Of a stretch of 12,826 nt of DNA, positions 1 through 12,826 are shown one piece after another (the first letter of the stretch is position 1; every line of letters begins with the position of its first letter). This DNA comes from a virus (lineage: Duplodnaviria > Heunggongvirae > Uroviricota > Caudoviricetes), in the IMG/VR virus record IMGVR_UViG_2939167301_000004. The stretch is one strand, 5' to 3'. A program made the position numbers and the translations under genes. Below the pieces are notes generated by a model. That model had not been told where the DNA came from, searched no databases, and saw only the letters and a list, made by a program, of their open reading frames with translations.

Positions 1-747
1 ATGAATCATCTTTACGAACAACTGACCGCACTTAAACTCACCGGCTTCCGTGATGCGCTTAAAAAGCAACTTGCTCAGCCGGGCACATACCAGGAGCTGG
101 GCTTCGAAGAACGCCTGTCATTACTGACAGCAGAAGAACTAACCTGCCGTGAAAACAGGAAGGCAGAGCGTCTGATCAAACATGCACGGTTCAGACTTAA
201 TGCTGAGTTATCAAAGCTGGATTATCGTAACAATAGAGGGCTGGACAGGGCCCTCATCCGTTCACTCAGTCAGGGAAACTGGTTAACCCTGAAACAAAAT
301 ATTTTACTGACCGGGGCCACCGGCAGCGGTAAAACGTTCCTGGCATGTGCACTTGGTCATAATGCCTGCCGACAGGGATACAAGGTCTACTATTATCGCC
401 TTAAAGCGCTGATGGAACAGTGCTATCAGGGGCATGCTGATGGAAGATACAGCAAACTTTTGACCAGGCTGAATAATAGCGATCTGCTGCTTCTGGATGA
501 CTGGGGGCTGGAACCTCTCTCATCAGAACAGCGTAGCGACCTGCTGGAAATAGTGGATCTGATGTACCAACGAGGCTCAATCATCGTAGTGAGCCAGTTG
601 CCGGTGGAAAACTGGTACAAAATGATCGGAGACTCCACACATGCGGATGCCATCCTAGATCGACTGGTTCATGGCAGTATCAAGATCGAACTTAAAGGAG
701 AATCAATGCGGAAAATACAATCTCCGTTGACCGAAGGAGATCAGTGA
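1..747 (+). CDS. istB: IS21-family IstB helper ATPase
   Basis: 248-aa ORF with Walker A (GATGSGKT) and Walker B (LLLLDDWG) motifs and IstB-like overall sequence. The ORF starts at window base 1, so the cognate istA would lie upstream outside the window. Confidence 0.85.
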   Translation: MNHLYEQLTALKLTGFRDALKKQLAQPGTYQELGFEERLSLLTAEELTCRENRKAERLIKHARFRLNAELSKLDYRNNRGLDRALIRSLSQGNWLTLKQNILLTGATGSGKTFLACALGHNACRQGYKVYYYRLKALMEQCYQGHADGRYSKLLTRLNNSDLLLLDDWGLEPLSSEQRSDLLEIVDLMYQRGSIIVVSQLPVENWYKMIGDSTHADAILDRLVHGSIKIELKGESMRKIQSPLTEGDQ

Positions 748-800
748 AGGTAATTTAAAAACGGTTCTGTGAAAGTGACACGAACCGATCTCCATCGATG
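1..800 (+). mobile_element. 3' portion of an IS21-family insertion sequence (istB plus right terminus); continues beyond window start
   Basis: istB followed by about 50-85 bp containing a direct repeat ACCGATCTCC (783-792 and 807-816), typical of multi-repeat IS21-family ends. Exact right terminus not determinable (somewhere 748-835). Confidence 0.5.
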
Positions 801-1403
801 TTACTCACCGATCTCCTTCACGGTAATACGCAACACTGACTGACGTGATGCCAGTTGCGCACTTTTACGCGAAAAAATCATGTTCTGCGCAGGGGTGAAT
901 TTTTCACGGCTGTCATCCACCGAAGCCACGTCAGGCCTGAATCCGATGGTCGTTAAAATGTCGCTATCCTGTGCGGAATAATTAATTTTTTCACCCTTCG
1001 CAAGCCAGGACAGAAGGGCTTCACGCAGGGCATCTGTGGCACGCTGTATGGCACAGTTTCGGGCAATGGCCGTCAGCTCACTGTAGCCCATCAGCTCTGG
1101 TGCCAGTGCGGCCGCCAGTACTGTGCCGTGCTGCTGCATAAAATCATTCAGCCGGTCGCGGATGCTGATGTGCTGAACGGCTTCATGCGAACGAATATAA
1201 CGACCGGCGGCCTGATTCACCTGCCATTTTCTGACTTCGATAATATTGCGTAATTCGTCCAGGCGGCTGACATTTCTGCCTTCTCCTGACAGAAGCCGCA
1301 GATATTCCTGTTCGGCCGCTGCCAGCTCATTTTTGCGTTGCAGCCATGCTGCTTTGTTATTCTGACAGGTGTCAAAGGCCTGCTGTAAGGCTGTGCTTTC
1401 CAT
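801..1403 (-). CDS. psu: P4 Psu-like polarity suppression / capsid decoration protein
   Basis: 200-aa ORF that I recognise as Psu-like, in the expected position downstream of delta in a sid-delta-psu operon. An IS21-family end lies immediately downstream, so the last ~10 codons may not be native. Confidence 0.65.
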   Translation of the reverse strand: MESTALQQAFDTCQNNKAAWLQRKNELAAAEQEYLRLLSGEGRNVSRLDELRNIIEVRKWQVNQAAGRYIRSHEAVQHISIRDRLNDFMQQHGTVLAAALAPELMGYSELTAIARNCAIQRATDALREALLSWLAKGEKINYSAQDSDILTTIGFRPDVASVDDSREKFTPAQNMIFSRKSAQLASRQSVLRITVKEIGE

Positions 1404-1476
1404 CGTTATCTCTTTCTCATCATGCTGAAGAATAAAAATACGGTGTGCGGCGACGGCCGGGGTTAACCGGCAGCCC

Positions 1477-1977
1477 TCATTCCAGACGCAGCGAATATGA
1501 TTGTGTTTTTAACCGTACTGGCGGCAGTTCCTGTTTTTCATGCAGGCGTTCTGCCAGTTCGTCCGGCGTGACCGGGCGGACAATGAAGCGGGTGATGGTC
1601 TGAAGCGTTTTAAACACCAGACCACAGCCCGGATCCGTGCACACATAAAAACGCTCGGTGACTTCCTGAGACAGACGCCGCGATGTTCTTGACAGCGCAA
1701 GGCCTTTACATCTCCGACAACAATATCCGGTAACAAGCATTCTTTTCGGGCGTTTCATACTGCCGGAGGCTGACGTCAGTGAATCGCGGTATCTCTGTTT
1801 GCCTGAAATGTATTCCATTCCTGAATCTTTACTGTCAGAGAAAAAGCTTTCACTCGCTTCAAATGTCGCAGAGCAATAAATATTCCGGCACTGTGCAATC
1901 ATTATCTTGGTGCCATCGTCCATGAAATGTGCGCGGCGGGTGTGAGCAACATGTCCACACGACGGGCAGTAAATCAT
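1477..1977 (-). CDS. delta: Delta-like late-gene transactivator (tandem Ogr-type zinc finger)
   Basis: 166 aa with two Ogr-like halves, each carrying C-x2-C ... C-x4-C motifs (CPSCGH...CRNIYC and CRRCKG...CTDPGCG). Its start overlaps the sid stop as ATGA (1974-1977). Confidence 0.8.
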   Translation of the reverse strand: MIYCPSCGHVAHTRRAHFMDDGTKIMIAQCRNIYCSATFEASESFFSDSKDSGMEYISGKQRYRDSLTSASGSMKRPKRMLVTGYCCRRCKGLALSRTSRRLSQEVTERFYVCTDPGCGLVFKTLQTITRFIVRPVTPDELAERLHEKQELPPVRLKTQSYSLRLE

Positions 1978-2641
1978 GACAGCAGTCCTCTGGCCTTAAG
2001 CACTGCTCCCTGCTGGTCTATTTTGTCCTGCCACACCTTGCGCTGTGCCGGTGTGCCTGCCACCTCATAATCCATGTGAGGAAGTGTTGCCGCTGACAGT
2101 CCGGTCAGCCGGAGAACCGGCTCGCCGGTGAGGCTGATTTGCATCTGTTTAATTTTCTGTTCCAGCGATGATTTCACCTGCTGCATGACAGCCTTTTCCG
2201 GTGCGACGTAGCCCTGATGGCCGGTGGTGTTGGCGAGCGGATTTTCCTGTACCAGAATGCTCAGATGCATTGCCCGGACAAGCGCCTCACAGGTTTCATT
2301 CAGGGCGTGTTCCAGCTCATGCTCTGCATACAGACTCAGAAGGTGATGATGTGCCTTCCGGTAGGCGGTGGCCGTGCTGTCACACGCCCCTTTCAGGCGT
2401 TCGCGTTCAAAATTCAGCACCACGGCCAGATTGTCATATTCCTGTACCAGCTCCCGGCGTGCCACGCGCTCAATGTGGCGCTGTTTCAGCTCGTCGCTCA
2501 GGACACCACCGGCTGCACGAAAGGCCGTGCGCCAGTCGTCAGCGTCGTTTCCGTCGGCCTGCGCCAGCGCATTTTTTTCCTGCTCTGTGAACCGCCCCGG
2601 GAATCCTGGAGACTAAACTTCCTGAGAAAGAGGTAAACAGG

Positions 2642-2968
2642 ATGACTAAAAATACTCGTTTTTCCCCTGAAGTCCGTCAACGGGCAGTCCGTATGGTTCT
2701 GGAAAGTCAGGGCGAATATGACTCACAATGGGCGACAATTTGTTCCATTGCTCCAAAGATTGGCTGTACGCCGGAGACTCTGCGTGTCTGGGTTCGCCAG
2801 CATGAGCGGGATACCGGGGGCGGTGATGGAGGGCTCACCACCGCTGAACGTCAGCGTCTGAAAGAGCTGGAGCGTGAAAATCGTGAACTGCGCCGCAGTA
2901 ACGATATCCTTCGCCAGGCTTCCGCTTATTTTGCGAAGGCGGAGTTCGACCGCCTCTGGAAAAAATGA
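2642..2968 (+). CDS. IS3-family transposase OrfA (HTH)
   Basis: 108-aa ORF with the N-terminal HTH and leucine-zipper-like region typical of IS3-family OrfA. An A6 run (2960-2965) sits at the orfA stop / orfB start overlap. Confidence 0.9.
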
Positions 2969-3855
2969 TGCCACTGCTGGATAAGCTGCGTGAGCAGTAC
3001 GGGGTCGGACCGCTATGCAGCGAACTGCATATTGCCCCGTCAACGTATTACCACTGTCAGCAACAGCGACATCATCCGGATAAACGCAGTGCCCGTGCGC
3101 AGCGCGATGACTGGCTGAAGAAAGAGATACAGCGCGTATACGATGAAAATCACAAGGTATACGGTGTGCGTAAAGTCTGGCGTCAGTTGTTACGGGAAGG
3201 TATCAGAGTGGCCAGATGCACTGTGGCACGTCTCATGGCGGTTATGGGACTTGCCGGTGTTCTCCGGGGTAAAAAGGTCCGTACGACCATCAGCCGGAAA
3301 GCCGTTGCCGCAGGCGACCGCGTAAACCGTCAGTTCGTGGCAGAACGACCTGACCAGCTGTGGGTGGCTGATTTTACTTACGTCAGCACATGGCAGGGCT
3401 TCGTCTATGTGGCGTTCATCATTGATGTGTTTGCCGGATACATTGTGGGGTGGCGGGTCTCATCGTCCATGGAGACGACATTCGTGCTGGATGCACTGGA
3501 GCAGGCGTTATGGGCCCGTCGACCGTCCGGCACGGTCCATCACAGTGATAAAGGTTCTCAGTATGTATCGCTGGCCTACACACAGCGGCTTAAGGAAGCC
3601 GGATTACTGGCATCAACAGGAAGTACAGGCGACTCGTATGACAACGCGATGGCGGAGAGCATCAATGGTCTTTACAAAGCGGAGGTAATACACCGTAAGA
3701 GCTGGAAAAACCGTGCAGAAGTGGAACTGGCCACACTCACGTGGGTGGACTGGTATAACAATCGACGATTGCTGGAAAGGCTGGGCCATACTCCTCCGGC
3801 AGAAGCAGAAAAAGCTTATTATGCTTCCATCGGAAACGATGATCTGGCAGCCTGA
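2965..3855 (+). CDS. IS3-family transposase OrfB (DDE catalytic domain)
   Basis: 296-aa ORF in the -1 frame relative to orfA with an rve-type DDE core. The A6 run at 2960-2965 is a candidate -1 programmed frameshift site producing an OrfAB fusion. Confidence 0.9.
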
Positions 3856-4039
3856 GTTCACAGATAAAATACTCTCCAGGAAACCCGGGGCGGTTCACTG
3901 CCCGTTCAATGGCCGTGACGGTCTCATCCATCAGGCGGGCGTTCTCAAGATGGGCGGCTCTGGCCTTTTCCAGTTGTGCCAGTGCGGGTTGCAGATATTC
4001 AGGGATAGTGTGGTCAGACATTTTCCGGCTCCTCGTCAC

Positions 4040-4111
4040 TTCAGGTTAAGAAAATTGTGACGTACACCGGACAGCAACACGACGCATTGCAGATGTGCCA
4101 GCCCTGACACA
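4040..4111 (-). promoter_or_regulatory. Candidate Psid late promoter with two TGT-N12-ACA activator dyads
   Basis: Perfect TGT-N12-ACA at 4056-4073 and 4094-4111, centred about 18 and 55 bp upstream of an inferred start near 4047 for sid (ATG 4021). This is the Ogr/Delta-type activator site architecture. Confidence 0.5.
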
Positions 4112-4190
4112 GGAGACTCATCCTCAGACCGGCAAGCCAGGAAAAGGTCGCAGGAAAAACCGGCTTACTGTTTGTTTTTTTATATTTTAC

Positions 4191-4294
4191 TGTTCACCTC
4201 TGTTCACCATAAGAAAAAAGATAAGTAATACAGTAAGTTAAAGGGTGAACAATCGCAGTAATGACTGTTCACCGTCTGTTCACCACTGTTCACC
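4191..4294. repeat. ori-like iteron cluster (six TGTTCACC octamers)
   Basis: TGTTCACC at 4191, 4201, 4266, 4277, 4287 and inverted at 4244-4251, with roughly 10-bp phasing, followed by an AT-rich tract (about 4300-4400). Matches the type I iterons bound by P4 alpha. Confidence 0.6.
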
Positions 4295-4452
4295 CGTTGA
4301 TGGGCTTTTTATGCTGTTTATTACTGTTTATTTTTATTAATTCACTGAAATAAATAAGAAAAAACAATTTGTATTTCACTATAAAAAATTCCAGGTCCTT
4401 CAGAACCCTTTGAGACCCTTCCAGTCCAGATGGATAAAAAACACACAGCCAT

Positions 4453-4520
4453 TGTAAGGTTGCCGGAACAAATTCCCCCTGTTGCGTCTGCTGAAAATAT
4501 TCACAAAATAAAGCGCTACC
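4453..4520 (+). promoter_or_regulatory. Candidate PLL late promoter upstream of vis
   Basis: Perfect TGT-N12-ACA dyad at 4453-4470 and an imperfect one about 36 bp downstream; would place a start near 4516, about 55 nt before the vis ATG. Confidence 0.4.
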
Positions 4521-4572
4521 CGAAGCCGGACGGACTTATCCGGTGCTGTATGGACATTAACGAGGTAGCCCG

Positions 4573-4839
4573 ATGCAAGCTGTTTTTTCTTCCCCGTCTC
4601 CCGCCCCTGTTACGCCACTGATGCCGCTGCCGGACATCACGCAGGAGCGTTTTTTACGTCTGCCGGAAGTGATGCACCTGTGCGGCCTGTCACGCTCGAC
4701 CATCTATGAACTCATCCGTAAGGGGGAATTTCCGCCGCAGGTGAGTCTTGGCGGTAAAAATGTGGCCTGGCTGCACTCTGAAGTCACCGCATGGATGGCC
4801 GGGCGCATTGCCGGACGCAAACGGGGGTACGACGCATGA
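4573..4839 (+). CDS. vis: AlpA-family phage regulatory protein (P4 Vis / orf88-like)
   Basis: 88-aa ORF with the AlpA-type HTH signature (RFLRLPEV...[17 protein letters not shown]); GAGG Shine-Dalgarno 7 nt upstream. Confidence 0.8.
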
Positions 4840-5435
4840 TGATGCCCGCTCTGCAAAAACTCCCTTTTTCTGGCTTGCCTTTTTCCGGCATTTGCGGATA
4901 TAGTTTTTCCGCTGTCGCAAAATCGGCAGCCGGGCGTGGAAACCCGTGTAACTCGAAGGCGACATATGACGCGCCATGCGTCTTTTTTTGTGTCGCAATC
5001 AACGCCACAGAGCGCCAGATTATGGTGTGGTGTGTGGTCAGTCGTGCAGATGGCATTCCGTGCATCCTGCCCGCGTCCGCTCATTATGCCGCAGAGTCAA
5101 TGGTAGCTCAGGCGGGGCAGCCTCCGGGCTGGCCGGTATTCTTCGAGGCCGGTATTTCCACCCCCGTCTGGGCTATCGCCATTGAGCGTGGAAACTCCGG
5201 CGATAGCAGTTATTTGCTACTCGAAGGAGGCTGCCTTATGGCTACAACCCTTACCCCCTCACACCCTGAATTTGTCTTTGTGTTTGCGGCTGTCCGTCGT
5301 GCAGACCGTCATCCCCGTATCTGTATGCTTCGCACCGTCGCCGGTGATGAACGCAGTGCCCGCCGTTCCCTTGTCCGTGACTATGTGCTCTCCCTTGCTG
5401 CCCGTCTGCCGGTGGTGGAGGTGTCCCGTGCGTAA
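4836..5435 (+). CDS. Long open frame (199 codons) spanning the immunity region; possibly eta-like; coding status uncertain
   Basis: Its ATG overlaps the vis stop as ATGA (4836-4839). The N-terminal two-thirds is low-complexity and contains the candidate PLE promoter and a terminator hairpin. There is a strong internal start (GGAGG then ATG at 5238) giving a 65-aa product in the same frame. Confidence 0.35.
4875..4904 (+). promoter_or_regulatory. Candidate sigma70 promoter (PLE-like)
   Basis: TTGCCT (4875-4880), 18-bp spacer, TATAGT (4899-4904). Confidence 0.45.
4968..4989 (+). terminator. Intrinsic terminator-like hairpin in the leader (attenuator candidate)
   Basis: GACGC-gccat-GCGTC stem-loop followed by seven T residues, about 60 nt downstream of the candidate promoter. 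Confidence 0.4.
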
Positions 5436-5715
5436 TAAAAAAGCCCCTCAGACCGTCTCAGCACGTCATGACGCCCGTGAACACCTCAGCATTGAGGCTT
5501 ACCATAAGCTCAACCGCGCCAGCGCCGTATCCCGGTTTGTTGGGGGTGATTTGATTCACCGTGAACTCTCCGGCCTGCATCAGCTCTACATTCCGCATAT
5601 TTTCAGCTACCTGAATGAAGATATTGATTTTGTGCTGAATGAGCTGAAAGCCAAAGGCCTGTGCCGCGATTTTCTCGCCCAGCAGAAAGACCGGGGAGAC
5701 AGGACGCATGTTTGA
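5428..5715 (+). CDS. Small protein at the epsilon position (95 aa; candidate helper-derepression protein)
   Basis: GTG start with GGAGG 6 nt upstream; overlaps the stop of the preceding frame. Size and position match what I recall for P4 epsilon; the sequence itself was not verified. Confidence 0.5.
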
Positions 5716-6163
5716 TTTTCCCCAGCCCGGTGAGATTTACCGTTCTGCCGGTTTTCCCGATGTGGCCGTGGTCGGCATTCTGGAAGACGGTATTCCGTGG
5801 GAAATGCCATACCGCTGCCCGGAAATTGTCTGGAACCCGTACCGCCGTAAATTCAGTATCCTTGTGCGTATCCTCGCCGACGGGCGCACCACAGACATCC
5901 CGCTGGGGCGTTTTCTGCGGGAATTTACCTGTGACCGTCCTGACCTGTTTAAACGCAGCCCCGTAAACCGGCATGCGGTACTGAAAGAAATGGCCGGAGA
6001 CCCGGAATTACAGAAATGGCGGGAGAAATATCTGGATATTTACCCGCAGGACACTGTTCCGGTCAGCCGGGCAGCACCGGTAGCGCGGGAATGGCGGGAA
6101 ATTCCCCGCACGGAGCCTGACCCGGAAACCACCCCGGATAACAGTTACCGCAATTATCTGTAA
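5708..6163 (+). CDS. Hypothetical protein (P4 orf151-like)
   Basis: 151-aa ORF; its ATG overlaps the upstream stop as ATGTTTGA (translational coupling). Confidence 0.6.
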   Translation: MFDFPQPGEIYRSAGFPDVAVVGILEDGIPWEMPYRCPEIVWNPYRRKFSILVRILADGRTTDIPLGRFLREFTCDRPDLFKRSPVNRHAVLKEMAGDPELQKWREKYLDIYPQDTVPVSRAAPVAREWREIPRTEPDPETTPDNSYRNYL

Positions 6164-6298
6164 TTAAAAAACGACACCCGAAAAATTAAATGTGCGTATT
6201 CGCGCAGGGATACGCACGTCTTCAGGAGACGCAGATATGCCTTATCAGTTAATGCAACCGGCACGGAATGCAGTCATCTGTCACAGGGAGGAAAGCAA

Positions 6299-6619
6299 AT
6301 GAAAACACCCTTACCGCCCGTCTTACGCGCTGCCCTTTACCGTCGCGCTGTCGCCTGTGCCTGGCTGACCGTGTGCGAACGTCAGCACCGCTACCCGCAT
6401 CTCACCCTTGAGTCACTGGAGGCGGCCATCGCCGCTGAGCTGGAGGGCTTTTATCTGCGCCAGCACGGTGAGGAAAAAGGGCGTCAGATAGCCTGTGCCC
6501 TGCTGGAAGATTTAATGGAATCCGGCCCCCTGAAGGCCGCGCCGTCGCTGTCCTTTCTCGGGCTGGTTGTGATGGATGAACTCTGTGCCCGTCACATAAA
6601 AGCGCCGGTACTGCACTGA
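6299..6619 (+). CDS. Hypothetical protein (P4 orf106 / cnr-like copy-number regulator candidate)
   Basis: 106-aa ORF with GGGAGG Shine-Dalgarno, immediately upstream of the primase gene. Confidence 0.6.
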
Positions 6620-6633
6620 AGGAGAACAACACC

Positions 6634-8967
6634 ATGAAAATGAACGTAACCGCCACCGTCAGCCATGCGCTCGGCCACTGGCCGCGTATTCTCCCGGTGC
6701 TGGGGATTCAGGTGCTGAAGAACCGTCATCAGCCCTGTCCGGTCTGTGGCGGGAGTGACCGCTTCCGTTTTGATGACAGGGAGGGGCGCGGCACCTGGTA
6801 CTGCAATCAGTGTGGTGCCGGTGACGGCCTGAAACTGGTTGAAAAGGTGTTTGGTGTCTCCCCGTCCGACGCGGCCGCAAAGGTGGCTGCCGTGACCGGC
6901 AGCCTGCCCCCGGCTGACCCGGCAGTGACGGCCGCCGCCGGTGCTGAAACAGACGCTGCCCGGAAGAACGCCGCCGCACTGGCACAAACCCTGATGGCAA
7001 AAACTCGTCCCGGAACCGGTAACGCCTACCTGACCCGCAAGGGCTTTCCCGGCCGGGAATGCCGGATGCTGACCGGCACACACAGAGCCGGTGGCGTGAG
7101 CTGGCGTGCCGGTGACCTTGTGGTGCCACTGTATGACGACAGCGGCGAGCTGGTTAACCTTCAGTTAATCAGTGCTGACGGCCATAAGCGCACCCTGAAA
7201 GGCGGACAGGTCAGGGGCACCTGTCACACCCTTGAAGGACAGAATCAGGCCGGAAAACGTCTGTGGATAGCGGAGGGATACGCGACCGCACTTACCGTAC
7301 ATCACCTGACCGGTGAAACGGTGATGGTGGCGCTTTCTTCCGTGAACCTCCTTTCTCTGACCAGCCTTGCCCGGCAGAAGCATCCGGCCTGTCAGATTGT
7401 CCTTGCCGCAGACCGTGACCTCAGCGGTGACGGCCAGAAAAAAGCCGCCGCAGCCGCAGATGCGTGTGAGGGCGTTGTTGCCCTGCCGCCGGTCTTCGGT
7501 GACTGGAATGATGCCTTCACGCAGTACGGCGGGGAGGCCACCCGTAAGGCCATTTATGATGCCATCCGGCCACCGGCTGAAAGCCCGTTCGACACCATGA
7601 GCGAAGCAGAGTTTTCCGCCATGAGTACCAGCGAAAAGGCCATGCGTATCTATGAGCATTACGGCGAGGCGCTCGCGGTCGATGCCAACGGCCAGCTTCT
7701 GTCCCGTTATGAAAATGGTGTCTGGAAGGTGCTGCCGCCACAGGACTTTGCCCGGGATGTGGCCGGGCTGTTTCAGCGTCTGCGCGCGCCGTTCTCCTCC
7801 GGGAAGGTGGCCTCCGTGGTGGACACCCTGAAGCTGATTATTCCGCAGCAGGAAGCCCCCTCCCGCCGCCTGATTGGCTTTCGTAACGGCGTGCTCGACA
7901 CGCAGAACGGCACGTTCCACCCGCACAGTCCGTCACACTGGATGCGCACCCTGTGCGATGTGGATTTCACCCCGCCGGTGGACGGTGAAACGCTGGAGAC
8001 CCACGCCCCCGCGTTCTGGCGCTGGCTTGACCGTGCCGCCGGTGGCCGTGCGGAAAAACGCGACGTGATTCTGGCCGCACTGTTTATGGTGCTGGCAAAC
8101 CGCTACGACTGGCAGCTCTTTCTGGAGGTGACCGGTCCCGGCGGCAGCGGCAAAAGTATCATGGCCGAAATAGCCACCCTGCTGGCCGGGGAGGATAACG
8201 CCACGTCGGCCACCATTGAGACGCTGGAATCCCCGCGTGAACGTGCCGCGTTAACTGGCTTCTCACTGATACGCCTGCCGGACCAGGAAAAATGGAGCGG
8301 CGACGGTGCCGGACTCAAGGCCATCACCGGCGGCGATGCGGTGTCCGTTGACCCGAAATACCGGGATGCGTACTCCACGCACATCCCGGCGGTGATTCTG
8401 GCCGTGAACAATAACCCGATGCGCTTCACCGACCGCAGCGGCGGCGTGTCACGCCGGCGGGTGATTATTCACTTCCCGGAACAGATAGCCCCGCAGGAGC
8501 GCGACCCGCAGCTTAAGGACAAAATCACCCGCGAGCTGGCGGTCATCGTGCGTCACCTGATGCAGAAATTCAGCGACCCGATGCTCGCCCGGTCACTGCT
8601 TCAGTCCCAGCAGAACTCAGACGAGGCACTGAACATCAAACGGGATGCCGACCCGACGTTTGATTTTATCGGCTATCTGGAAACCCTGCCGCAGACCAGC
8701 GGCATGTATATGGGGAACGCCAGTATCATCCCGCGTAATTACCGTAAATACCTCTATCACGCCTATCTGGCCTACATGGAGGCAAACGGCTACCGGAATG
8801 TACTCAGTCTGAAAATGTTCGGGCTGGGGCTGCCGGTGATGCTGAAGGAATACGGACTGAATTACGAGAAGCGCCATACCAAACAGGGGATACAGACCAA
8901 CCTGACGCTGAAAGAGGAAAGCTACGGCGACTGGCTGCCAAAATGTGACGACCCTGCAACAACCTGA
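6634..8967 (+). CDS. alpha: P4 alpha-type primase-helicase
   Basis: 777-aa ORF with an N-terminal Cys4 zinc motif (CPVCGG...CNQCG), a central primase region and a C-terminal P-loop NTPase (GPGGSGKS); AAGGAG Shine-Dalgarno. Confidence 0.9.
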   Translation: MKMNVTATVSHALGHWPRILPVLGIQVLKNRHQPCPVCGGSDRFRFDDREGRGTWYCNQCGAGDGLKLVEKVFGVSPSDAAAKVAAVTGSLPPADPAVTAAAGAETDAARKNAAALAQTLMAKTRPGTGNAYLTRKGFPGRECRMLTGTHRAGGVSWRAGDLVVPLYDDSGELVNLQLISADGHKRTLKGGQVRGTCHTLEGQNQAGKRLWIAEGYATALTVHHLTGETVMVALSSVNLLSLTSLARQKHPACQIVLAADRDLSGDGQKKAAAAADACEGVVALPPVFGDWNDAFTQYGGEATRKAIYDAIRPPAESPFDTMSEAEFSAMSTSEKAMRIYEHYGEALAVDANGQLLSRYENGVWKVLPPQDFARDVAGLFQRLRAPFSSGKVASVVDTLKLIIPQQEAPSRRLIGFRNGVLDTQNGTFHPHSPSHWMRTLCDVDFTPPVDGETLETHAPAFWRWLDRAAGGRAEKRDVILAALFMVLANRYDWQLFLEVTGPGGSGKSIMAEIATLLAGEDNATSATIETLESPRERAALTGFSLIRLPDQEKWSGDGAGLKAITGGDAVSVDPKYRDAYSTHIPAVILAVNNNPMRFTDRSGGVSRRRVIIHFPEQIAPQERDPQLKDKITRELAVIVRHLMQKFSDPMLARSLLQSQQNSDEALNIKRDADPTFDFIGYLETLPQTSGMYMGNASIIPRNYRKYLYHAYLAYMEANGYRNVLSLKMFGLGLPVMLKEYGLNYEKRHTKQGIQTNLTLKEESYGDWLPKCDDPATT

Positions 8968-8984
8968 CCCTCATGACCCACCTG

Positions 8985-9008
8985 ACCGGCATCTGCCGGT
9001 CTTTTTTT
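8985..9008 (+). terminator. Rho-independent terminator after alpha
   Basis: ACCGGCA-tc-TGCCGGT hairpin followed by a T7 run. Confidence 0.55.
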
Positions 9009-9026
9009 ATCCCGATATCCCCCGCA

Positions 9027-9320
9027 GGTGAACAATCCACTGTTCACCCTTCACCGTATATTCACCCGTTATCATACTGAAATTAAAAGAGAAAAACGAA
9101 AGGTGAACAGTGTGAACAATCAAATCAAAAAAAACTTTTTTCTTCCTGAGTGATTTCAGTACGGGGGATTAATCACCGGTATGAGTCACACCGGCAGAAT
9201 GCCGGAGGTGAAGAATCGAATGTTCACCCTTCACCCATTATTCACCACCTATCACTCTGAAATAAAAGGAGAAAACAGAAAGGTGAACAGTGTGAACAGT
9301 TCTTTCGAAAAAAAATTTTT
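9027..9320. repeat. crr-like region: two ~115-bp direct repeats carrying iterons
   Basis: Units at about 9027-9140 and 9207-9320 (180-bp period), each with GGTGAACA / TGTTCACC / TTCACC(C/G) / TGTGAACA octamers. Confidence 0.65.
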
Positions 9321-9342
9321 TATGTGGATAAAAGATGCACTG

Positions 9343-9369
9343 GTTTGGATCCGAGCTACGGATCCAAAC
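9343..9369. repeat. Perfect 11-bp inverted repeat (GTTTGGATCCG-agcta-CGGATCCAAAC)
   Basis: Read directly from the sequence; contains two GGATCC sites. Confidence 0.6.
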
Positions 9370-9510
9370 TTACTGATTAAAAATGATTTAACTTTCCGAT
9401 TTATTGATGGGCTGAAAATAGATTGGTCAGAAAAACAGTGGGGGCACAAAAGGGGGCATATTTCATTGTTGTGTTTTATTATTTGTTTTTTATCATTAAC
9501 TTATTTTGAT

Positions 9511-9533
9511 GTTTGAGTCCGGCCTTCGCACCA
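9511..9533 (+). other. attP-type core resembling the 3' end of a tRNA-Leu gene
   Basis: GTTTGAGTCCGGCCTTCGCACCA resembles a T-loop / acceptor-stem / CCA 3' end. There is no upstream tRNA body: the 5' T-stem complement is absent. Confidence 0.5.
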
Positions 9534-9547
9534 TCGGAACATCAATA

Positions 9548-9570
9548 GACGTCAACGGACGTCTTTTTTT
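9548..9570 (+). terminator. Rho-independent terminator just after the att core
   Basis: GACGTC-aacg-GACGTC hairpin followed by a T7 run. Confidence 0.5.
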
Positions 9571-9614
9571 GTGCCTAAAATCCAGTATCCGCAAGGCTTT
9601 CCTCGCTTTTTCAC

Positions 9615-9650
9615 TCAACCTAAGTCAACCTGATTCAATCTACATCAACT
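9615..9650 (+). promoter_or_regulatory. Four 10-bp-phased TCAAYY direct repeats (candidate integrase arm-type / autoregulatory sites)
   Basis: TCAACC at 9615 and 9625, TCAATC at 9635, TCAACT at 9645. An 8-bp inverted repeat GGGTACAA (9660-9667) / TTGTACCC (9694-9701) follows, upstream of the int start. Confidence 0.4.
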
Positions 9651-9731
9651 TACTGATGCGGGTACAACTGCGGGTATTTCCCGGTTCGATAATGTTTGTA
9701 CCCACACAGAACCCTTGAAAGGATACTCATC

Positions 9732-10833
9732 ATGGCTCTGAGTGATGTGAAGGTTCGTTCGGCTAAGCCTGAAGCAAAAGCCTATAAGCTGACCGACGGT
9801 GAAGGCATGGTTTTGCTGGTTCACCCTAACGGCTCCAAATACTGGCGGCTACGTTATCGCTTTGGCGGTAAAGAGAAGATGCTGGCATTGGGGAAATACC
9901 CCGAAGTGTCGTTGGCGGATGCCAGGGCACGCCGGGATGAGGCTCGTAAGCTTTTAGCTAATGGTGTCGATCCCAGTGAAAACAAGAAAGCTGTTAAGGT
10001 AGAACAGGAACAAGAGGCGATAACGTTGAAGTAGTCGCCAGAGACTGGCACGCCAGCAATCAGAAGTGGTCGGCATCGCATAGCGCTCGTGTTTTGAAAA
10101 GTCTGGAGGATAATCTCTTTACTGCTATCGGTAAGCGGAACATTGCGGAACTGAAGACGCGGGATCTTCTTGTACCCATTAAAGCAGTCGAGTCATCCGG
10201 GCGGCTCGAAGTTGCCGCCCGTTTACAGCAGCGTACTACCGCGATTATGCGCTTTGCCGTTCAGAGCGGCTTAATCGACTACAACCCCGCGCAAGAGATT
10301 GCAGGTGCGGTTGCTACGGCGAAAAGACAGCACCGTGCAGCTCTTGAACTGAACCGTATACCTGAATTACTTCATCGCATAGATCACTATTCTGGCAGAC
10401 CGTTAACTCGGCTGGCGGTTGAACTCACTTTATTGGTTTTCATCCGTTCGAGCGAGCTGCATTTTGCCCGCTGGTCAGAAGTAGATTTTGAAACGGCTAT
10501 GTGGACAATCCCAGGTGAGCGTGAGCAACTGGAAGGAGTCAAGCATTCTCAGCGTGGCTCGAAGATGCGGACACCACACCTTGTACCTTTGTCGCGGCAG
10601 GCCCTAAGTATTTTGGAAAAGATCAAAAGCATGAGCGGAAATTGAGAGCTGATTTTTGTGGGCGATCACGATCCACGTAAGCCGATGAGTGAGAATACGG
10701 TGAACAAGGCTTTGCGCGTAATGGGGTATGACACGAAGGTCGAGGTTTGTGGGCATGGCTTCAGGACGATGGCTTGTAGTTCGTTGATTGAGTCGGGATT
10801 ATGGTCGAGGGATGCGGTAGAGCGGCAGATGAG
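9732..10833 (+). pseudogene. int: P4-type tyrosine integrase, inactivated
   Basis: N-terminal MALSDVKVRSAKPEAKAYKLTDGEG... is a P4-family integrase signature. There is a frameshift near 10020-10035, an in-frame TGA at 10643-10645, and a 3' truncation by IS629 at 10834 (about 368 codons retained; the catalytic C-terminus is missing). Confidence 0.8.
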
Positions 10834-10875
10834 TGAACCGCCCCGGGTTTCCTGGAGAGTGTTTTATCTGTGAAC

Positions 10876-11762
10876 TCAGGCTGCCAGATCATCGTTTCCG
10901 ATGGAAGCATAATAAGCTTTTTCTGCTTCTGCCGGAGGAGTATGGCCCAGCCTTTCCAGCAATCGTCGATTGTTATACCAGTCCACCCACGTGAGTGTGG
11001 CCAGTTCCACTTCTGCACGGTTTTTCCAGCTCTTACGGTGTATTACCTCCGCTTTGTAAAGACCATTGATGCTCTCCGCCATCGCGTTGTCATACGAGTC
11101 GCCTGTACTTCCTGTTGATGCCAGTAATCCGGCTTCCTTAAGCCGCTGTGTGTAGGCCAGCGATACATACTGAGAACCTTTATCACTGTGATGGACCGTG
11201 CCGGACGGTCGACGGGCCCATAACGCCTGCTCCAGTGCATCCAGCACGAATGTCGTTTCCATGGACGATGAGACCCGCCACCCCACGATGTATCCGGCAA
11301 ACACATCAATGATGAACGCCACATAGACGAAGCCCCGCCATGTGCTGACGTAAGTAAAATCAGCCACCCACAGCTGGTCAGGTCGTTCTGCCACGAACTG
11401 ACGGTTTACGCGGTCGCCTGCGGCAACGGCTTTCCGGCTGATGGTCGTACGGACCTTTTTACCCCGGAGAACACCGGCAAGTCCCATAACCGCCATGAGA
11501 CGTGCCACAGTGCATCTGGCCACTCTGATACCTTCCCGTAACAACTGACGCCAGACTTTACGCACACCGTATACCTTGTGATTTTCATCGTATACGCGCT
11601 GTATCTCTTTCTTCAGCCAGTCATCGCGCTGCGCACGGGCACTGCGTTTATCCGGATGATGTCGCTGTTGCTGACAGTGGTAATACGTTGACGGGGCAAT
11701 ATGCAGTTCGCTGCATAGCGGTCCGACCCCGTACTGCTCACGCAGCTTATCCAGCAGTGGCA

Positions 11763-11766
<4 letters not shown>
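10876..11766 (-). CDS. IS3-family transposase OrfB (copy B)
   Basis: 296 aa, one substitution (Q to R) relative to copy A OrfB. Confidence 0.9.

Positions 11767-12826
<1,060 letters not shown>

Follow-up and report, generated by a model that had tools for sequence, protein, structure and literature searches.

Two iteron clusters identified as the probable ori1 and crr of an IS-damaged P4-type satellite prophage

The mechanism by which phage P4 replicates is established. Its origin has two parts, and the distant iteron cluster is required for initiation, not inhibitory as in iteron plasmids; DnaA is not known to be needed. P4-like satellite prophages of Enterobacterales share their core gene set and gene order with the element described here (de Sousa and Rocha, PMC8628076). 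We analyzed a DNA stretch of 12,826 nt (hereafter the window) that holds two clusters of the octamer TGTTCACC, and we estimate at about 0.95 the probability that these clusters correspond to ori1 and crr, the two sites that act in cis as the replication origin of a P4-type satellite prophage. Such a two-part origin is a textbook feature already described for P4 and is not new; its identification in the window is a correct annotation that adds nothing further.

Identity of the element and its replication genes

Window positions 4100-9400 align with phage P4 (X51522 / NC_001609) in a single piece at 97.5% identity, and positions 3898-9534 at 97.6%. The homology ends at window 9534, equivalent to position 7548 of the P4 record and one base beyond the annotated attP core (7528-7547), and in E. 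coli EJN001 the same element adjoins tRNA-Leu. Judged from these alignments, the element is an integrated P4-type satellite prophage at tRNA-Leu.

The P4 records annotate ori and crr at homologous positions, base for base, and all 16 annotated iterons map onto octamers in the window. None of the 16 carries a substitution relative to P4, and there is no indel within 4191-4294 or within either crr unit. The earlier note had read the clusters as the bipartite ori/crr architecture of alpha-dependent replication in P4, and the overall identity to P4 together with the annotation at homologous positions bears this out. It had also placed the clusters on the two flanks of the primase gene; one does lie on each side, but the wording is imprecise, since what the two sites enclose is the entire early and replication operon. 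Alpha does not directly follow the left cluster, which lies ~2.3-2.4 kb upstream of it; between them are vis, two small RNAs, epsilon, orf151, and cnr (Table 1).

The alpha protein is identical to P4 alpha at 768 of 776 residues (99%; 8 residues differ), its coding sequence, in which P4 has a further site, ori2, that characterizes the alternative oriII replicon, is ~98% identical to that of P4, and the protein carries the Pfam domains Zn_Ribbon_Prim, Toprim_3, D5_N, DUF5906, and Pox_D5. Residues 671-770, the C-terminal DNA-binding domain, match PDB 1KA8 ("putative P4-specific DNA primase", E = 1e-63). By sequence, the element thus has the cognate initiator of a P4-type origin, that is, a zinc-ribbon/Toprim primase with a helicase and a C-terminal winged-helix origin-binding domain, and cnr lies upstream of alpha as expected of such an origin. 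The P4 record annotates a terminator at the position homologous to t-alpha. Relative to P4, there is a 9-bp duplication directly after the alpha stop codon.

Table 1. Features of the origin region and replication module (window coordinates)
Feature	Position	Strand	Details
ori1 core, six type I iterons TGTTCACC	4191..4294	+	exact copies; P4 "ori type 1 repeats" at P4 2212-2315
AT-rich spacer inside ori1, between iterons 2 and 3	4209..4243	.	35 bp, 7 G/C of 35
AT-rich tract between ori1 and the 10-bp repeat block	4296..4395	.	noticed in the earlier note
Three tandem 10-bp repeats CCTTCAGAAC CCTTTGAGAC CCTTCCAGTC	4396..4428	-	slot of P4 "ori type 2 repeats"
TGT-N12-ACA motif, candidate Delta/Ogr activator site of PLL	4453..4470	+	conserved in P4
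vis / ORF88, AlpA-type helix-turn-helix	4573..4839	+	Pfam Phage_AlpA, E = 7e-21; 87/88 identical to P4 ORF88
isrK small RNA	4911..4988	+	Rfam RF01394, 71.3 bits, above gathering score
C4 antisense RNA = P4 CI immunity RNA	5096..5183	+	Rfam RF01695, 76.7 bits
cnr (ORF106), P4 copy-number regulator	6299..6619	+	106/106 identical to P4 ORF106; Pfam DUF5375
alpha, initiator, primase-helicase	6634..8967	+	777 aa, full length
t-alpha, intrinsic terminator of alpha	8984..9008	+	7-pair stem (6 G-C), then T run
crr direct repeat 1	9022..9141	+	120 bp; iterons 9027-, 9041+, 9059+, 9102-, 9111-
crr direct repeat 2	9202..9321	+	120 bp; iterons 9207-, 9221+, 9239+, 9282-, 9291-
attR, att core, right prophage end	9515..9534	+	end of P4 homology

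The two iteron clusters

The octamer occurs in 12 exact copies on the two strands of the window, against an expectation of 0.39 +/- 0.62 from 200 dinucleotide-preserving shuffles, none of which (0/200) reached 12; the scan of both strands that the earlier note had proposed as a check therefore returned a clear enrichment over shuffled sequence. Six exact copies fall at 4191-4294, and five exact copies and five with one mismatch fall in the two crr repeats. The twelfth exact copy, at 10699(-), lies outside both clusters and is compatible with chance, since 0.39 copies are expected. The start of crr at 9022 is 4.83 kb from that of ori1 at 4191.

The ori1 iterons start at 4191(+), 4201(+), 4244(-), 4266(+), 4277(+), and 4287(+), with successive spacings of 10, 43, 22, 11, and 10 bp. 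All of these are near multiples of 10.7 bp, so the helical phasing that had been noticed for the six left-hand octamers is real, and the fixed arrangement of type I iterons near the helical repeat is identical to the P4 annotation. As in a P4-type origin, an AT-rich segment lies within ori1. This 35-bp spacer is probably the unwinding element, a role that it is reportedly known to play, and across 42 origins it is conserved as well as the iterons are (e.g., the stretch TAATACAGTAAG). The AT-rich tract reported beside the left octamers is also present (23% G+C at 4300-4399); it differs from P4 by several substitutions and one 1-bp gap.

The crr repeats are 81% identical to each other, with starts 180 bp apart and a gap of 60 bp according to the repeat finder. 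Repeat 1 differs from its P4 counterpart by two substitutions, neither of them within an iteron, and repeat 2 is identical to P4 crr repeat 2. Two 120-bp repeats that follow the alpha terminator, carry iterons in both orientations, and lie kilobases away from ori1 are what is expected of a P4-type crr. The repeats had been described as ~115 bp long at 9027-9320; repeats with octamers are indeed there, but that description is slightly short (Table 1). Likewise, the degenerate octamers that had been ascribed to the second unit are real but are present in both, with 9059(+) TATTCACC and 9111(-) TGTTCACA in unit 1, and 9207(-) TCTTCACC (which reads GGTGAAGA on the + strand), 9239(+) TATTCACC, and 9291(-) TGTTCACA in unit 2. 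Positions 9323-9331 form a single DnaA box, which P4 also has and which is absent at that position in the other relatives with enough downstream flank; we rejected it as part of the origin because it is not conserved in relatives other than P4.

The layout extends well beyond this element. Of 43 loci in other genera of Enterobacterales that encode an alpha homolog and have full flanks, 30 have TGTTCAC heptamer clusters on both sides of alpha, eight have an upstream cluster only, and none has a downstream cluster only; 344 of the 454 heptamer hits fall inside such clusters. In 42 distinct P4-like origins the six ori1 iteron slots are unchanged in position and orientation, with conservation of 94% in iteron columns versus 79% in other columns. 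In distant relatives in which the DNA-binding domain of alpha has diverged, the downstream heptamer is altered along with it (CTTCACC, TGTTCAG, TGTTCAT, TATTCAG, or ACTTCCA). The ori site precedes alpha by ~1.75 kb in most relatives, versus 2.4 kb here, and in many of them crr consists of one unit or is separated from alpha by additional DNA. The whole P4-like family conserves the two-site layout and the six-slot plan of ori1, and more distant primase-helicase islands retain only the downstream array, each with heptamers of its own; these two results are of modest added value.

If the element replicates as P4 does, alpha, encoded between the two sites, would bind the iterons at ori1 and crr through its C-terminal winged-helix domain, and alpha at ori1 would contact alpha at crr, looping out the intervening 4.8 kb. 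The DNA would open at the AT-rich segment within ori1, and the helicase and primase activities of alpha would set off theta replication that is bidirectional and independent of host DnaA, DnaB, and DnaG. Initiation would be restrained, and the plasmid copy number set, by Cnr, whose gene directly precedes alpha.

The repeat block beside the origin

It is in the repeat block at 4396-4428 that the origin region has most of its mismatches to P4. The slot has three alleles in E. coli, of window, P4, and CUVET20 type, and is hypervariable in other Enterobacterales genera, where the neighboring iterons stay fixed. The "ori type 2 repeats" that occupy it in P4 fit the published P2 cox-box consensus, and the window has a non-P2 allele of them, located upstream of the late promoter PLL, whose repeats are probably recognized by the Cox protein of a helper. 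The TGT-N12-ACA motif to their right is a probable Delta/Ogr activator site of PLL, going by the form of such sites in P2 and P4 late promoters.

Because the slot is hypervariable across P4-like elements, it may be an interchangeable cassette with which a satellite detects one specific helper phage: the Cox protein of that P2-like helper would bind the allele and switch PLL on, so that alpha would be expressed and the adjacent origin would fire. We offer this reading tentatively, at somewhat less than even odds. Sequences similar to the AAGGG-type boxes of the window occur in the attP and Pe-Pc regions of Wphi. When the three alleles were compared with P2 and Wphi by short-word BLAST, the best match of the window block was a 12-mer in the attP region of Wphi (E = 0.17, not significant), and the other alleles gave equally long chance 12-mers elsewhere; the attP location of the match is suggestive. 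A box-density scan found RAAGGR clusters in Wphi only in the Pe-Pc and attP regions, and its power is low because the positive control (TTAAA[GC]) missed the annotated Cox sites of P2. The 61-bp repeat block had only chance matches by BLAST in the phage collection (E of at least 2), and a scan of viral contigs for AAGGGT-N4/5-AAGGGT-N4/5-AAGG gave, among the matches listed, scattered unrelated contigs. If the cassette reading is true, the block decides which helper can wake which satellite, and as a possible determinant of helper-satellite activation pairing it merits follow-up.

State of this copy, rival explanations, and known origins

The element is decaying and riddled with insertion sequences. 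The sid gene is split by an IS3-family element (2588-3897) that has left a fresh target duplication of 3 bp, the end of an ISEc12 abuts the psu stop codon (window 1-832), and sequence comparison within the 12,826-nt stretch found neither cos nor the integrase of the element. A composite transposon of two inverted IS copies around the replication module was ruled out, because the left copy has its own 3-bp duplication (CTG) and the flanks of the pair match neither on the outside nor on the inside. Neither the IS3-family element nor the ISEc12 touches the ori-to-crr segment, and the replication module looks intact (16 iterons, full-length alpha, cnr, CI RNA, and alpha terminator). The window thus presents a P4-type satellite prophage whose replication module appears to have stayed whole despite IS damage to the capsid-size gene and the left end, and we infer that the origin of this copy would still fire upon derepression of the prophage.

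The same damage invites the view that the sequences are an inert relic of a P4 origin in a prophage fixed in the chromosome, with iterons that persist for want of time to decay. The two IS and the absence of cos and int from the window agree with it, as does a divergence from P4 of only ~2.5%, so that conservation within this lineage says little about selection. Such a relic is nevertheless unlikely, given that every component of the replicon is intact (cnr at 100% identity to P4) and that both IS spared the ori-to-crr segment. The sid gene that was hit is not known to be needed for replication in P4. In far more diverged elements, moreover, the iteron slots are conserved above background, which shows that the architecture in general is under selection.

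We consider it very improbable that the octamers serve mainly as operators, for alpha or another protein, at divergent late promoters or in termination after alpha, and not as an origin. Their locations lend this view some color, the left cluster lying between the divergent sid and vis transcription units and the right one starting 20 bp past the alpha terminator, and the inverted iteron pair at 4244-4273 scores as a terminator-like hairpin. The P4 records, however, assign both sites to replication on the basis of experiments, and it is a primase-helicase that bears the matching DNA-binding domain; the strict helical phasing, the conservation of the AT-rich spacer, and the presence of a second site far from the first are hallmarks of an origin. 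Chance or base composition, for which one might cite the stray octamer at 10699 as an example of how single copies can arise, is already refuted as a cause of the clustering by the shuffles and by the recurrence of the clusters, in matching relative positions, across dozens of genera. The origin reading, ori1 and crr, is the one that we retain.

The locus shares with iteron plasmid origins (pSC101, R6K, F, and P1) the short, phased direct repeats as sites, here putative, for binding of an initiator that the element itself encodes, the adjoining AT-rich segment, and a second, distant iteron cluster that would interact with the first. It does not conform to a classical Rep/iteron plasmid origin: the initiator is a primase and helicase, unrelated to the Rep proteins of these plasmids, and the single DnaA box lacks the conservation expected of an origin component. 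With P4 (X51522, X05623, and NC_001609) the agreement is far closer and comprises six ori iterons of the same spacing and orientation, a crr of two 120-bp units with ten iterons, and the order ori, vis, CI RNA, epsilon, orf151, cnr, alpha, terminator, crr, and att. The copy described here differs from P4 in being integrated and damaged by insertion sequences, in a few substitutions in the spacers, and in the block of 10-bp "type 2 repeats" to the right of ori, which is present as a different allele.

Octamer clusters on either side of alpha

We scanned both strands of the 12,826-base window for TGTTCACC and compared the count with that in dinucleotide-preserving shuffles. The octamer is strongly enriched, with 12 copies observed against 0.39 +/- 0.62 expected, a count reached in none of the 200 shuffles. 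Six exact copies form the ori cluster, at successive spacings of 10, 43, 22, 11 and 10 bp, all near multiples of 10.7 bp. The crr cluster consists of two direct repeats that are 81% identical, begin 180 bp apart and hold five octamers each when copies with one mismatch are included. The observation in the earlier note is thus confirmed, its coordinates and description of both clusters being correct to within a few bases. The two crr units are 120 bp long rather than the ~115 bp it gave; degenerate octamers, which it had noted in the second unit, occur in both. The twelfth TGTTCACC lies alone on the minus strand within an integrase pseudogene (10699-10706) and is unremarkable, given the 0.39 copies expected by chance.

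The gene set between the two sites is that of P4 (see table). The alpha protein, the primase-helicase initiator, has Zn-ribbon primase, Toprim, D5_N, DUF5906 and Pox_D5 domains, and its residues 671-770 match 1KA8, the solved origin-binding domain (E = 1e-63). Relative to P4, a 9-bp tandem duplication (TGACCCTCA) begins at the stop codon of alpha, with no effect on protein length. Just past crr unit 2 is a perfect DnaA box, TGTGGATAA (minus strand TTATCCACA), which is present at the matching position in P4 and absent in the other relatives examined with sufficient downstream flank. A 111-codon ORF spans crr unit 2 and reaches the att core; it has no Pfam match, is labeled a hypothetical protein by RefSeq in related genomes, and is probably not a gene.

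Features of the ori-to-crr segment in the window
Feature	Position	Remarks
ori cluster	4191-4294	six octamers within 104 bp
ori iteron starts	4191+, 4201+, 4244-, 4266+, 4277+, 4287+	exact octamers
Spacer, ori iterons 2 to 3	4209-4243	G/C at 7 of 35 bases
Stretch right of ori cluster	4300-4399	23% G+C
vis/ORF88	4573-4839	87/88 identical to P4
isrK small RNA and C4/CI immunity RNA	between ori and crr	
cnr (copy-number regulator)	6299-6619	106/106 identical to P4
alpha	6634-8967	777 aa; 768/776 identical to P4
9-bp duplication	8965-8973	
alpha terminator	8984-9001	
crr unit 1	9022-9141	120 nt
crr unit 2	9202-9321	120 nt
111-codon ORF	9181-9516	
DnaA box	9323-9331	

Integrated satellite and its insertion sequences

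Homology to P4 ends at 9534, one base beyond the annotated att core. An element in E. coli EJN001 is 100% identical over its matching parts of window 833-12826 and adjoins tRNA-Leu; it runs from int through accessory genes, psu, delta, sid, ori, alpha and crr to a degenerate second integrase. This gene order, together with the end of P4 homology, indicates that a P4-type satellite prophage is integrated here and that the window covers its right-hand two thirds. A frameshifted pseudogene of a tyrosine recombinase follows attR (9535-10833). Its DNA is in part 74% identical to P4 int, which suggests that the satellite inserted beside an island that already occupied this tRNA-Leu.

The element is damaged at three places, and none of the three insertions touches the ori-to-crr segment. 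The end of an IS21-family element (ISEc12-like; IstB match, E = 2e-67) fills window 1-832; it meets the psu stop codon at its first base and lengthens the psu frame from 190 to 200 codons. A 1310-bp IS3-family element (2588-3897) splits sid, with a CTG target duplication; it is recent, since it is missing from the otherwise identical EJN001 element, which has no insertion sequence in sid. An inverted copy, 99% identical, lies beyond attR (10834-12143) without a duplication. Each IS3-family copy encodes paired orfA (108 aa) and orfB (296 aa) and carries a frameshift pseudoknot of the ALIL type. Together they flank the entire ori-alpha-crr-attR segment, and recombination between them could invert the replication module.

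Conservation of the repeats and variation in the adjacent block

We used an alignment of alpha homologs to scan one genome per species, and found 80 loci whose alpha identities span 38% to 99%. TGTTCAC clusters were counted in 43 of them, those with complete flanks and an alpha identity of 58% or more: 30 have clusters on both sides of alpha, eight upstream only and none downstream only, and the remaining five, a Pantoea group, have no TGTTCAC cluster, with CTTCACC filling the same slots. Clusters account for 344 of the 454 TGTTCAC hits in these loci. Among 42 distinct ori1 regions, the six slots are constant in position and orientation, gaps are single-base at most, and column conservation is 94% in the iterons vs 79% in the rest; the AT-rich spacer is strongly conserved too. 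Upstream of alpha, the distance to ori is ~1.75 kb in most relatives; crr has one or two units, and seven loci carry extra DNA between alpha and crr.

Loci with ~40%-identical alpha (L068-L073, from Yersinia, Morganella, Corallincola and Rosenbergiella) have a dense array directly 3′ of the gene, and no matching upstream cluster was seen in them. These arrays hold up to 15 copies of lineage-specific heptamers, namely TGTTCAG, TGTTCAT (11 or more copies), TATTCAG, ACTTCCA and TCTACCT, so the repeated word shifts as the DNA-binding domain of alpha diverges, as should happen if the repeats are read by that domain. Such 3′ arrays may represent the older, single-site form of these origins.

Mismatches to P4 are densest around 4396-4428; of the 135 differences counted across the 5.6-kb alignment, 26 fall in 4350-4449. 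We compared this block with the P4 record (L001, 2420-2449) and loci from other genomes (L086-L089 and L009-L078). P4 has three 10-bp "ori type 2 repeats" here, GCTTTAAGTG GCTTTAAATG ACTTTAAGTG (opposite strand: TTAAAGTCA, TTAAAGCCA, TTAAAGCAA), which match the published P2 cox-box consensus; in that slot the window has three other 10-bp repeats, CCTTCAGAAC CCTTTGAGAC CCTTCCAGTC. P4-like prophages of E. coli with almost identical flanks carry at least three alleles of the block, and in other genera the slot is filled by three to five tandem repeats of 10-11 bp, unrelated in sequence. Vis, an AlpA-type helix-turn-helix protein, is unlikely to distinguish the alleles because its P4 and window versions are 99% identical. 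The block may be an array bound by Cox, specific for one helper phage or another. GGACTGGAAGGG is common to the window allele and the attP region of the P2-like phage Wphi (E = 0.17 for the 12-mer match by itself), and a box-density scan, whose positive control failed, placed RAAGGR clusters in Wphi only in the Pe-Pc and attP regions; given that E value and the failed control, the link to a Wphi-type helper is only suggestive.

Correspondence with the P4 origin

Window 4100-9400 aligns with phage P4 (X51522, NC_001609) over its full length in a single piece at 97.5% identity. Against the whole P4 genome, BLAST returned 833-2587 (99.0%) and 3898-9534 (97.6%) as collinear. At homologous positions the P4 feature tables annotate six "ori type 1 repeats" in a rep_origin and ten more such repeats within two crr units, and all 16 fall on window octamers once the sequence offset is added, which supports the P4 ori/crr interpretation of the earlier note. 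In pairwise alignments with P4 the iterons are unchanged in every case, and no indels occur inside the ori cluster or either crr unit. Unit 2 is identical to P4, and unit 1 differs by two substitutions, both outside iterons.

In P4, the type I iterons to which alpha binds lie at ori1 and crr, and replication needs both sites in cis; minimal ori1 comprises six iterons and a 35-bp AT-rich segment, and altered spacing inactivates it. Replication requires the primase and helicase activities of alpha and, to our knowledge, does not require DnaA, DnaG or Rep; copy number is limited by Cnr. The literature on P4 replication includes Flensburg and Calendar 1987, Ziegelin et al. 1993 (cited in PMC8628076), Ziegelin et al. 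1997 and Tocchetti et al. 1999. Every component in the window is identified with its P4 counterpart, and we infer that the window copy would still fire. As a feature, ori/crr is known, and public P4 records already annotate it.
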